In this document: positions 2,608 through 4,868 of the stretch, piece after piece | How the letters are laid out: the number at the start of each line of letters is the position of its first letter | Numbering within the stretch: position 1 is the stretch's first letter | IMG/VR virus record: IMGVR_UViG_2579778650_000006 | Strand: one strand, 5' to 3' | Length of the DNA: 5,022 nt | Origin: a virus | Taxonomy: Duplodnaviria > Heunggongvirae > Uroviricota > Caudoviricetes | The notes under the pieces: model-generated | Databases searched by the model: none | What the model was told of the DNA's origin: nothing | Seen by the model: only the letters and a program-made list of their open reading frames with translations | Program-made: the position numbers and the translations under genes

Positions 2608-3366
2608 TCATTGATTCACCTCCTGCCTGTCGTCCGGCATTCGCTCACTACAGCTTATCCAACCATCCGGAGTTACCGGAGAGTTGCCCGATAGTGCATT
2701 CTGCTCCAGTGATGCTTTTACAAACCACGCTGCCTGAACTATAACGCCATGAATCCAGCGCAAATCAGCATCGCGATCTTTCTTTTTCATCTTTTCGCCA
2801 CTTAAGGCCTTGCTTATGTGGCTGCGTACCAGGTCTTCATGTAATTCCTTCGCCTCCTCAATGGTGAAACCACCAGGCAGAAGAGCCGGAGTTACCGGAG
2901 AGCTGGTTGACGCTTCCGGGATTTCCCGAAAATTATTGGTTGACGAATTCTTGCTTTCCCGAAAGTTTCCGGACTGAAGCATGGCGGTGCGGCAGGCGTT
3001 CCATATTTCGGCAGCAATATCGCGCTCGCTATCGGTTAATTTGTACGTGGAAACATAGCCAGAGAGCATTTCTACGTTTTCCGGAGTTGCTTCTTCCGGC
3101 ACTACCGGCGCTGGCGGGGCGGCAAATAGATATCCGCCAAAGTCAGGAAGCTCTCCAATGGCCTGTACGAACTTTTGTTTGCCTACGTCAACTCCTAATG
3201 GGTAATGAGCTATAATCTTTGCCACCGGCTCTGCTTCCAGCGATACCAGTGCAATTCGTGCCAGTTCTTCCGCTTCTTCTGCTGGCAGTACAACGTTGCT
3301 ACCCGGTCCGTATGTTTCGCGCCACTGCTTGATTGTCAGCAGTCGCCCTTTGGTAATAGTGATCAT
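2608..3366 (-). CDS. Hypothetical phage protein, 252 aa, containing an internal SPVTP duplication.
   Basis: ATG at 3364-3366 overlaps the stop of the upstream gene as ATGA. SD AAGGA lies ~8 nt upstream. Stop TGA at 2608-2610. I recognise no family. Confidence 0.8.
   Translation of the reverse strand: MITITKGRLLTIKQWRETYGPGSNVVLPAEEAEELARIALVSLEAEPVAKIIAHYPLGVDVGKQKFVQAIGELPDFGGYLFAAPPAPVVPEEATPENVEMLSGYVSTYKLTDSERDIAAEIWNACRTAMLQSGNFRESKNSSTNNFREIPEASTSSPVTPALLPGGFTIEEAKELHEDLVRSHISKALSGEKMKKKDRDADLRWIHGVIVQAAWFVKASLEQNALSGNSPVTPDGWISCSERMPDDRQEVNQ
2667..2683. repeat. Copy 1 of an exact 17-bp direct repeat CCGGAGTTACCGGAGAG.
   Basis: Identical 17-mer at 2667-2683 and 2886-2902, read directly from the sequence. 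Confidence 0.9.
2886..2902. repeat. Copy 2 of the exact 17-bp direct repeat CCGGAGTTACCGGAGAG.
   Basis: Identical to 2667-2683. The offset is 219 bp, a multiple of 3. Both copies lie inside the 252-aa CDS and encode SPVTP. Confidence 0.9.
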
Positions 3367-3878
3367 GCCGCGTTTCCTTCTTTCTTATTAACAATCACAC
3401 CGTCATATATTTCATTAAGGTGCCCTCTCAACTCCATGCGCCTTAATGCAGATAACATGTAATCGCATTCAACCTGCTTATTCCCAGTAAATGGCTTATC
3501 GTCAGGATTACCCCAACAGCAATTACCCCTGGGCCATCCATGTACTTTCCGTACTCTTCCGTTAACAACGTGAAGTAATCCCCAGCCGGGAGGTAAATCC
3601 TCAACTGAAATAATTTCCGGCTCACTAATAAAGAATCGCCAGTCGCCCATGCCAAGTGAGGGATTTTTACGGAAACGCTTTTTTCTATCTGCCAACAAGT
3701 CAGCACGAGAACACTTCGCCTCTATCAGGCATGATGCTGAATTTCTGAATCCCATAGCATCTGGCTGTTCTCCGGTACTGGTTACAGCAACAAAGCGGTC
3801 ATGAAAGCAAACCTTGAACCCGTTGCGCTTAAGGAACTTGTACGCAATCTGACAGAGTTCGTGGTGTGTTAACGCCAT
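3363..3878 (-). CDS. Putative PD-(D/E)xK-fold nuclease-like protein, 171 aa from ATG 3876-3878 (possibly MmcB-like).
   Basis: ATG at 3876-3878 has SD AAAGGAGAG ~5 nt upstream. The track start at 3911 is a TTG without an RBS, so I place the start at the ATG. Motif E7 ... P39-D40 ... E53-A54-K55 (GEQPDAMGF...CLIEAKCSRADLLAD) fits a PD-(D/E)xK active site. C-terminal half is Cys/Trp-rich (GNCCWGNPDD). Stop TGA at 3363-3365 overlaps the next start. Confidence 0.75.
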   Translation of the reverse strand: MALTHHELCQIAYKFLKRNGFKVCFHDRFVAVTSTGEQPDAMGFRNSASCLIEAKCSRADLLADRKKRFRKNPSLGMGDWRFFISEPEIISVEDLPPGWGLLHVVNGRVRKVHGWPRGNCCWGNPDDKPFTGNKQVECDYMLSALRRMELRGHLNEIYDGVIVNKKEGNAA

Positions 3879-3879
3879 A

Positions 3880-4365
3880 TCACTCTCCTTTGATGCGAAT
3901 GCCTGTTGCAATGCTGTTTATGATGCTGTCAGTGCATGGGGTAGAAAGCTGGGCATCTCCAGCAATTTTCATGACCTCAACATCTGCATATCGAATACCG
4001 AGGTGTATCAGACCGGCTATGCCTGACTTAAGCCGAGCATTTTCCATAAATAGAACTTTTGCCCGCTGTTTTTCTGCTTCAAGCTCAACGCGCAGCTTCC
4101 CTACCGTTAGCGCAATATCCTCGTTCTCCTGATCGCGGCTTTTGATGTATTGCAGGTTTCTTTCCCGTTCATCCAGCAGTGCCAGCACGGTTTCTGGTCC
4201 GGTCAGAAATTTGAAGGCGTTGAGCGCATCAATATCCACACCGTAATCTTTAAGTTCCTGTTCACTTAACAAGTCATCATCAGCTGGCAACATTAACAGG
4301 CGTTCCATTGCTGGAATTGCACGTTCCGCCACCTCACGCAGTGCCTGGTAATTAATTTCGCTCAC
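3880..4365 (-). CDS. Hypothetical coiled-coil phage protein, 161 aa; possibly Ead/Ea22-like (tentative).
   Basis: GTG start at 4363-4365 with strong SD AAAGGAGG (plus 4372-4379) at 6-nt spacing. The start overlaps the upstream stop as GTGA. Central heptad-like segment (LTVGKLRVELEAEKQRAKVLFMENARLK). Stop TGA at 3880-3882 is 1 nt before the next ATG. Confidence 0.8.
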   Translation of the reverse strand: MSEINYQALREVAERAIPAMERLLMLPADDDLLSEQELKDYGVDIDALNAFKFLTGPETVLALLDERERNLQYIKSRDQENEDIALTVGKLRVELEAEKQRAKVLFMENARLKSGIAGLIHLGIRYADVEVMKIAGDAQLSTPCTDSIINSIATGIRIKGE

Positions 4366-4868
4366 TGGTTGCCTCCTTTGCGAAGCTGGGCAGCAAAGTC
4401 AACTAACCACTCAGTCATTTCAACCTTCCCTACCAGGTCTGAACCAGGGTACATACAGCAATCACTCTGCGCCGCTTTGAAATCCTTATACTCATATTCT
4501 TGGGCCACCAGATTTTTTGCAGCTTCTATAGCAGCATCCACCCCCTGCGCCCGGACTTCAGCCAGGAAAGCATCAGTGGTTGGCGTTTCAGGTATCTGTC
4601 TCCTCATCCGTTCTATTGCATGATTGAACCCGAAGTCTTCCGCGAGAGATACGTCATCCATATTGTCATTGTCATCTTCAATATCCCGTGATTCTGGAAT
4701 TGCAGACTTTATTCCCGCATTCTCCGCTGCCAGCGCCGCGCACTTGGCCTCAAGAGCGGCAACCACTTCCTGATGGTCTTTGTACTTAACGTATGAGCCG
4801 GAGATGTCATCACCTTCGGTGTTTAGCCATGCGTCATTGCAATTCACTGCGTAGGTTCTGATGCTCAT
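4362..4868 (-). CDS. Hypothetical acidic phage protein, 168 aa from ATG 4866-4868.
   Basis: The track ORF extends to a TTG at 4976 without an RBS. The internal ATG at 4866-4868 has SD GGGAGAG ~7 nt upstream. Contains a coiled-coil-like stretch ([21 protein letters not shown]) and an acidic patch ([21 protein letters not shown]). Stop TGA at 4362-4364. Confidence 0.7.

Follow-up and report, generated by a model that had tools for sequence, protein, structure and literature searches.

We assign the four adjacent minus-strand open reading frames (ORFs) at positions 2608-4868 of a 5,022-nt stretch of viral DNA (hereafter the window), with a probability of roughly 0.8, to the exo-xis (ea22) piece of the early-left (pL) operon in a lambdoid prophage integrated at mlrA, and do not regard them as a functional unit. 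The ORFs, which we name p168, p161, p171 and p252 after the lengths of their products, had been described in a first-pass annotation as a cassette built around a nuclease and possibly forming a defence, exclusion or anti-defence module, with ordinary early-left cargo as the fallback. The fallback holds. Profile searches assigned two of the four products to the Ead/Ea22-like family (PF13935) and one to the DUF551 family, and the four genes are not conserved together; known early-left families that lack conserved linkage are essentially the outcome that the annotation itself had named as speaking against its module.

A prophage fragment between two insertion sequences

The window corresponds to that end of a lambdoid prophage which lies towards mlrA, with an insertion sequence on each side. 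Positions 98-4927 are 100% identical to the mlrA prophage of E. coli O111:H2 (NZ_CP077479), whose locus runs int, xis, DUF4222, p252, p171 and Ea22-like genes, with a cI-like repressor further upstream; phage PhiR5_1 carries the same left arm, continuing into orf61, orf60a, exo, bet and gam. The earlier placement of the four ORFs in a lambdoid prophage, within its int-proximal accessory region, is supported. All features described here lie on the minus strand. The 5' part of mlrA (yehV), the attachment-site gene for this prophage type, occupies positions 98-529 according to the annotation of NZ_CP077479, and is followed by the genes for an integrase (550-1836; Pfam Arm-DNA-bind_2 and Phage_integrase, PGAP) and an excisionase (1870-2124; Pfam DUF1233, PGAP), a 44-aa ORF that serves as context (2143-2277), and the gene for a DUF4222 protein (2281-2559; Pfam DUF4222, PGAP).

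Both ends of the window looked foreign to an E. coli context at first, and their interpretation as artefacts was rejected because they are the ends of IS66 and IS100 elements. Positions 1-97 belong to an IS66-like element whose end, with tnpA starting near position 13, is inserted in mlrA and forms the left boundary of the prophage remnant; positions 1-100 are 100% identical to IS66-like tnpA ends of many E. coli genomes, and the left end does not align to mlrA at the same place of the otherwise identical locus. At the other side, positions 4928-5022 are the end of an IS21-family IS100kyp element, comprising the 3' end of istB, with transcription towards p168. The sequence is 100% identical to IS100kyp ends from position 4923 to 5022, where it does not align to the intact locus, and the same IS100 junction is present in IMG/VR contig L084. 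The prophage is here a fragment between IS66 and IS100, and the IS100 end separates the operon stretch from its upstream part. Rfam searches found no RNA families in the window, and scanning for promoters and terminators revealed no site resembling either on the minus strand within 2608-4868.

The ORFs and their junctions were as described in the first-pass annotation: p168 (4868-4362, 168 aa, ATG start) overlaps p161 (4365-3880, 161 aa, GTG start) in a GTGA at 4362-4365, a 1-nt spacer (3879) separates p161 from p171 (3878-3363, 171 aa, ATG start), and p171 overlaps p252 (3366-2608, 252 aa, ATG start) in an ATGA at 3363-3366. SD-like sequences precede the starts of p168, p161, p171 and p252 (GGGAG, AGGAGG, AGGAG and GAAGGA, respectively), as expected if each gene had its own SD, but that of p168 is internal coding sequence (see below). 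The junctions are the same, nucleotide for nucleotide, in many related loci with differing neighbouring gene bodies, indicating that they are not due to chance, and the four genes are physically coupled in translation. What did not survive was the step from packing to shared function, because tight packing is the norm for the pL early-left operon, the connector is generic and the linkage is not conserved. The lambda operon has overlaps at exo/bet, orf60a/exo, orf63/orf60a and orf61/orf63, and the upstream genes in the 100%-identical O111:H2 locus overlap likewise, so that the coupled chain extends beyond four. The ORFs and junctions of the proposed four-gene cassette thus stand, whereas p168 is no independent gene, p252 is a deletion derivative and the chain is longer. 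Stop/start overlaps in lambdoid early operons do not indicate common function; the junctions themselves are conserved, portable connectors.

Comparisons across genomes did not show the co-occurrence and conserved gene order of a multi-gene system. All three partners were present in seven of the 72 IMG/VR viral loci containing a p171 at least 98% identical, and 18 different combinations of partners occurred among these loci. Among 32 genomes of other species, none had all partners and 29 had none. Complete E. coli genomes contained p171 in 910 of 5426 cases, and at least 80% of the four-gene stretch in 15. Additionally, searches of PADLOC-DB v2 with six proteins, including all four, did not yield any match at E <= 0.01.

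Ea22-like and DUF551-family modules

The first ORF, p168, is a remnant of a frameshifted, IS-truncated Ea22-like paralogue. It comprises codons 61-228 (the 3' 168 codons) of a disrupted 228-codon gene, and intact 228-aa ORFs in three other loci (L049, L074 and L087) include it as residues 61-228; its match to Pfam PF13935 (43.3 bits, cutoff 27) covers profile positions 48-138 only. DNA alignment of intact and frameshifted versions identified the frameshift as a 2-bp insertion (CA on the plus strand) at about 4922-4923. Positions 4865-4927 (minus strand) contain the tail of this gene's N-terminal fragment, read out of frame, with a TGA that overlaps the ATG of p168, and the IS100 end cuts the parent gene at 4927/4928. 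Both the SD and the ATG of p168 are internal coding sequence in the intact 228-codon gene. PHROG 368 matches p168 and p161, and the two were also considered as one split ea22 gene; this was rejected because p168 has the C-terminal part and yet stands upstream, which is the wrong order.

The product of p161 consists of an Ead/Ea22-like N-terminus with a coiled coil, a variable C-terminal part and a GIRIKGE end. It matches the full PF13935 profile (positions 1-139; 108.8 bits, cutoff 27), shows 54% identity to residues 1-78 of lambda Ea22 and ends in the identical C-terminal heptapeptide. On sequence grounds, p161 is the orthologue of ea22, a gene termed pro-lysogenic in published work on lambda and Stx phages. 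The conserved junction at its 3' end, ATTCGCATCAAAGGAGAGTGA (3880-3900, minus strand), contains the SD of the next gene inside the I-K-G-E codons and then the stop, and is followed by the single spacer base and the ATG of p171, giving the end motif ...ATC AAA GGA GAG TGA N ATG. The 3' end of lambda ea22 is identical. The junction persists before p171 behind at least eight different upstream contexts and, in IMG/VR, 102 of its 115 occurrences have an ORF at +1 nt, these ORFs coming from 15 unrelated clusters. That the ea22 end precedes 15 unrelated gene families indicates that the coupling is a generic connector. The K/RGE motif of Ea22 is reportedly of unknown significance. For this motif, reported at the Ea22 C-terminus in PMC7093339, there is a simple reading: the codons AAA GGA GAG would constitute the SD for whichever downstream gene is plugged in.

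At the other end of the stretch, p252 encodes a DUF551-family exo-xis protein that is a deletion derivative, DUF551 by descent but without the domain core. Its match to Pfam DUF551 (PF04448) includes profile positions 1-16 of 68 only (residues 235-250, 24 bits), whereas relatives showing 99% identity are about 302-305 aa long and contain the full PF04448 domain; p252 has lost about 50 codons, and with them the core, through an in-frame deletion. The SPVTP linker before the DUF551 stub is encoded by one copy of a 20-nt direct repeat (repeat family D3; 2667-2686, minus strand), with a second, 95% identical copy at 2886-2905 on the same strand, and the relatives of p252 show mosaic breakpoints at about residues 155-163 and 225-230.

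The part of the pL operon in which the four ORFs fall is already known as the exo-xis (ea22) stretch. These ORFs occupy the same position between xis and exo, in the same pL-driven early operon, as the exo-xis region of lambda and Stx phages (ea22, orf61, orf63, orf60a, orf73 and ea8.5), and both this region and the modular, variable C-terminal domains of Ea22 have been described previously (PMC7093339, PMC8614690, PMC10834534). In Ea22 variants from Stx phages, the variable C-terminal modules include DUF551 (PMC10834534). Unlike these regions, the window copy includes a second, disrupted Ea22-like gene and a gene for a DUF551 protein from which the domain has been deleted, and it has p171 where, in lambda, a non-coding gap follows ea22. 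By term search, a nuclease is unmentioned in the exo-xis literature that we found.

We propose that each of the four genes would be a separately exchangeable module, joined to its neighbours by short conserved junctions in which the end of one gene is combined with an SD, a stop codon and the start of the following gene, with the ea22 end as the clearest case. Modules would be shuffled by recombination at the junctions and in in-gene linkers such as SPVTP, and shuffling at junctions would preserve translational coupling with any neighbour.

A stand-alone PD-(D/E)xK nuclease

The 171-aa protein had been proposed to have a PD-(D/E)xK fold with D40, E53 and K55, and this was confirmed. It shows the core alpha-beta-beta-beta-alpha-beta fold, and residues E37, D40, E53 and K55 are invariant among 33 close relatives; among 40 family representatives with less than 50% identity, D40 remains invariant and the other three are at least 90% conserved. 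A single p171 sequence retrieved nothing significant from Pfam, NCBIfam, PADLOC or the PDB. The structure 3dnx (SPO1766), to which p171 shows both structural and motif similarity, was reached by profiles and structure only, with a family-profile match at E 8.7e-5. In direct comparison with PF06319 (MmcB-like/DUF1052), p171 did not reach the gathering score and gave no match even at E <= 10, although 12 of the 40 relatives produced subthreshold matches (best E 2.9e-4). Likewise, p171 did not match Pfam Hjc (PF01870), for which weak subthreshold matches occurred in 22 of the 40 family members (best E 1.3e-4), and Hjc structures are present among its fold matches. Its sequence and modelled fold identify p171 as an intact, stand-alone PD-(D/E)xK nuclease, distantly related to MmcB/SPO1766 and Hjc.

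With the archaeal Holliday junction resolvase Hjc, p171 has in common the PD-(D/E)xK core and a similar size, whereas it differs from the MmcB-like proteins by an additional helical part at the C-terminus, which is conserved (NKQxEC...RR). MmcB proteins, moreover, are chromosomal and mostly alphaproteobacterial (PMC3424549), while the p171 family occurs on phages and mobile elements. In Caulobacter, MmcB is an SOS-induced PD-(D/E)xK endonuclease involved in interstrand crosslink repair and needed for mitomycin C resistance, and a crosslink-repair or SOS role is known for this protein only (PMC9578287).

The p171 family is large, widespread and uncharacterised, containing 3239 clusters at 50% identity and 642 phage records. 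More than 60 contigs contain the ORF itself at full length and with identical sequence. PGAP calls the place of p171 a frameshifted pseudogene in one genome, a flag that we did not accept because the ORF is full length and conserved. Carriers include Stx and other enterobacterial prophages, conjugative elements, P1-like plasmids and virulent phages. In Vibrio phage MAR10, the homologue lies directly after the genes for a polymerase, a primase/helicase and an SNF2 helicase; homologues adjoin a DNA primase in two Ackermannviridae genera, and NinB adjoins a homologue elsewhere. At the superfamily level, p171 in enterobacterial prophages is usually preceded by an Ea22-like gene and followed by a DUF551-type gene, which leaves room for a loose functional relation with both families.

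We infer that p171 is a replication/recombination endonuclease and not a defence gene, with its substrate suggested, by analogy, by its fold relatives and gene neighbourhood only. The predicted metal-dependent DNA endonuclease, with E37/D40/E53/K55 as its active site, would be made early from pL upon induction, and would work beside the neighbouring Red genes on branched or damaged DNA arising as an intermediate of replication or recombination. Against this role, lambdoid phages usually have a junction resolvase already (RusA or Rap), so that the need for a second one is not obvious. It is a tentative and somewhat doubtful proposal that p171 is the founding member of a large, so far unrecognised family of PD-(D/E)xK nucleases from phages and mobile elements (about 3,200 clusters), acting without the window neighbours. 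Such an enzyme could possibly be a new kind of phage enzyme for processing junctions or forks; more exotically, it could discriminate modified from unmodified DNA, which would account for the occasional pairing with phage methyltransferases. The family is a candidate worth experiment, with an active site that is easy to mutate.

Alternative explanations

If the four genes formed a module dedicated to defence, superinfection exclusion or anti-defence, the nuclease would be its effector, and the translationally coupled coiled-coil and acidic proteins its sensors or regulators. Such a module would agree with the physical coupling of the genes, their conserved junctions, the intact active site of p171 and its usual Ea22-like and DUF551-type flanks in enterobacterial prophages, but it is very improbable, being largely refuted already by the missing co-occurrence: the same p171 sequence is found with freely varying partners, the arrangement occurs in 15 E. 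coli genomes as compared with 910 containing p171, and homologues stand alone in virulent phages. Moreover, 15 unrelated gene families are found coupled to ea22 through the same junction, none of the four products has a PADLOC match, both p168 and p252 are damaged here, and the stretch is without an internal promoter for expression in a lysogen. An unlikely alternative, less so than the module, is that p171 alone is an offensive or discriminating nuclease, directed against host DNA or the DNA of competing phages or plasmids, or acting in a restriction-modification-like manner with a nearby phage methyltransferase. Its fold is also found in restriction enzymes, and it is carried by prophages, conjugative elements and P1-like plasmids; however, a DNA methyltransferase (C5 or N6/N4) adjoins p171 in a minority of loci only (4 of 32 genome loci), and the restriction-modification reading was rejected on this account. 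The proteins most closely related to p171 are junction resolvases and a family of repair proteins rather than restriction enzymes, and the location of homologues in replication modules of virulent phages also argues against an offensive role, as does the invariance of D40, with the rest of the motif nearly so, across the 3239 clusters, unlike in fast-evolving restriction enzymes.

The assignment to the exo-xis region is compatible with a further explanation, which concerns the state of this locus and not the identity of its genes: the whole stretch could be a silent, decaying prophage remnant, with no ORF expressed or active. We consider this a serious possibility, at slightly less than even odds. 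Two of its four ORFs are disrupted, no internal promoter-like site was found, and IS elements lie on both sides, with IS100 between the stretch and pL. Conversely, p161 and p171 are both intact, with identical counterparts in complete phages, and the istB gene of IS100 reads towards p168, making read-through transcription possible.

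Layout and setting of the four ORFs

The first-pass annotation had described four closely packed genes on the minus strand at 2608-4868, and all of its ORF coordinates, overlaps and spacing were borne out. These ORFs, named by their length in amino acids, are p168 (4868-4362, ATG start), p161 (4365-3880, GTG), p171 (3878-3363, ATG) and p252 (3366-2608, ATG). A GTGA overlap joins p168 to p161 (4362-4365), one spacer base (3879) separates p161 from p171, and an ATGA overlap joins p171 to p252 (3363-3366), with an SD-like purine-rich sequence 6-10 nt upstream of all four starts. 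Their status as four genes did not stand, in that p168 is a fragment and p252 a deletion derivative.

E. coli O111:H2 12A and O55:H7 RM12579 carry, integrated at mlrA (yehV), a lambdoid prophage that window positions 98-4927 match with 100% identity; its annotated order is mlrA, int, xis, a 44-aa ORF, DUF4222, p252, p171, a trio of Ea22-like genes, some small genes and the repressor region. This left arm is shared by phage PhiR5_1, where orf61, orf60a, exo, bet, gam and kil come next. Together, these correspondences place the four ORFs in the exo-xis part of the early-left (pL) operon, a region described as dispensable and variable and as centred on a modular ea22 with swappable C-terminal domains, one variant having DUF551 (PMC7093339, PMC8614690, PMC10834534).

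Neither window end matched prophage or mlrA sequence. The left end (1-97) is the tnpA side of an IS66-like element, and at the right end (4928-5022) lies the istB side of an IS100kyp element, with istB reading towards the ORFs; therefore, the int-to-Ea22 segment is a prophage remnant lying between two IS ends and separated from pL. The IS100 junction is exactly common to IMG/VR contig L084, from which the IS66 junction is absent, and mlrA is truncated in the window.

On sequence grounds, p161 is an ea22 orthologue, with a full-model match to Pfam Ead_Ea22 (108.8 bits), 54% identity to lambda Ea22 over the N-terminus and coiled coil, and the same final heptapeptide, GIRIKGE. The match of p168 is confined to the C-terminal two-thirds of the model, and p168 corresponds to residues 61-228 of a 228-codon Ea22-like gene that is unbroken in other contigs (L049, L074 and L087). 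Both the window and the O111:H2 locus carry a 2-bp insertion (window about 4922-4923), five bases beyond which lies IS100 in the window; the resulting frameshift leaves a 61-aa N-terminal fragment (tail at 4865-4927) whose TGA overlaps Met61, the apparent start of p168. As a separate gene p168 is thus ruled out, being the frameshifted tail of the longer one. RefSeq annotates both pieces of the split gene in the O111:H2 locus (NZ_CP077479) as separate ead/Ea22-like proteins.

The remaining ORF of reduced status, p252, can be assigned to the DUF551 family. Its relatives at 99% identity are 302-305 aa long and have a complete PF04448 domain, of which p252 retains no more than profile positions 1-16 and a few residues at the end, following an in-frame deletion of about 50 codons. 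Within the gene, an SPVTP linker is encoded by a 20-nt direct repeat (2667-2686 and 2886-2905), and a near-tandem repeat of 31 nt (2904-2967) codes for NFRE. The linker positions lie near mosaic or recombination breakpoints of p252 relatives, suggesting that SPVTP linkers are in-gene recombination hot spots.

Linkage of the ORFs and portable junctions

The four ORFs do not constitute a functional cassette. Among 72 IMG/VR contigs with p171 at ≥98% identity and sufficient flank, its partners occurred in 18 combinations of same, diverged, partial or absent, and all three accompanied it in only seven. Complete E. coli genomes contained p171 in 910 of 5426 cases, against only 15 with ≥80% of the 2,261-nt four-gene arrangement, and 29 of 32 genomes of other species encoding a p171 relative had no partner nearby. 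Outside Escherichia, its neighbours included other Ea22-like and DUF551 proteins, C5 and N6/N4 DNA methyltransferases, NinB, a TraC conjugation ATPase and a nucleoid-associated protein. No PADLOC defence model was matched by any of the four, and no minus-strand promoter-like or terminator-like sites, which would allow expression from a repressed prophage, were found within the cassette. The earlier proposal of a cassette with shared function, possibly in defence, is thus refuted by the first-pass annotation's own criterion, given its unconserved linkage, and the remaining interest of the locus lies in p171 as a single gene and in the ORF junctions.

Dozens of related contigs preserve these junctions to the base, even though the gene bodies on either side differ. 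The final 21 nt of ea22, ATTCGCATCAAAGGAGAGTGA (window 3880-3900, minus strand), are identical in lambda (L117 2148-2170; identity 21-24 nt), and upstream of p171 this end is kept behind at least eight different upstream sequences. Among the IMG/VR matches listed for the 21-mer, a start codon lay one base after its end in 102 of 115, and the downstream ORFs formed 15 unrelated clusters, p171 being one of them (18 of 102 ORFs). The p171/p252 junction behaved similarly. Being conserved before unrelated genes, the junctions are therefore portable connectors, made up of gene end, SD, stop and start, at which modules are exchanged. Overlapping genes are also usual in the rest of this operon and in lambda, and coupling belongs to the operon, not to a particular gene set.

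Ea22 proteins end in a conserved K/RGE motif, the significance of which has been called unknown (PMC7093339). At the ea22 end, the KGE codons AAAGGAGAG (AAA GGA GAG) are the SD of the next gene, which would explain the motif.

p171, a nuclease-like protein

Searches of p171 against Pfam, NCBIfam and PADLOC yielded no matches. The ORF is intact and strongly conserved, with E37, D40, E53 and K55 invariant in close relatives; across 40 family representatives sharing <50% identity, D40 is invariant and the other three are ≥90% conserved. Foldseek matched p171 to 3dnx, the solved structure of SPO1766 from the MmcB-like/DUF1052 family (E 4e-6), and the family profile reached the 3dnx sequence (E 8.7e-5). 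Subthreshold Pfam matches of relatives were to the archaeal Holliday junction resolvase Hjc (22 of 40) and to MmcB-like proteins (12 of 40). Conserved motif, structural match and profile all uphold the first-pass nuclease call, named residues included, and p171 represents a new, uncharacterised branch of a known nuclease superfamily.

In NZ_CP077479, PGAP labels the first 179 nt of p171 (window 3700-3878; L001 11603-11781) a 'frameshifted' hypothetical pseudogene. All 171 codons form an uninterrupted ORF, which is identical in >60 contigs and aligns end-to-end with homologues of other genera, and the label is probably an annotation artefact from mosaic reference proteins.

The family comprises 3,239 clusters at 50% identity (E ≤ 1e-3) and is found in 642 phage records, every one of which labels it hypothetical; one mentions the SPO1766 structure. 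In the virulent Vibrio phage MAR10, the homologue (L120 4866-5480) comes directly after DNA polymerase, primase/helicase and an SNF2-type helicase; in the Ackermannviridae, it abuts DNA primase in Kuttervirus and lies one gene upstream of it in Campanilevirus. Conservation in Ackermannviridae homologues (Salmonella phage SenASZ3, L121 3980-4597; L124 3953-4690) is limited to the N-terminal nuclease core, about 110 aa. The closest characterised relative family is that of MmcB, a Caulobacter endonuclease that is induced by the SOS response and has been linked to crosslink repair (PMC9578287), and the next is Hjc. Because of the replication modules of virulent phages and the relatedness to MmcB and Hjc, we infer, at roughly even odds, that p171 is a metal-dependent, structure- or damage-directed DNA endonuclease for phage replication or recombination, which would be made early from pL, adjoining the Red genes.

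The main rival reading, an offensive or modification-discriminating nuclease, draws on the DNA methyltransferase sometimes found beside p171 homologues, the adjoining gene being of the C5 or N6/N4 type in 4 of the 32 other-species genomes (L006, L013, L027 and L034); however, it is weakened by both the conservation of the family and its replication-module context. In three others of the 32 genomes, the adjoining gene encodes a TraC-type conjugation ATPase, and thus the family is also carried on conjugative elements. Of 1,297 occurrences of p171 across complete E. coli genomes, 248 are on plasmids, and parts of the cassette have matches in records of P1-like phage-plasmids, where they are annotated as 'EaA protein'; therefore, the modules circulate in P1-type elements too.
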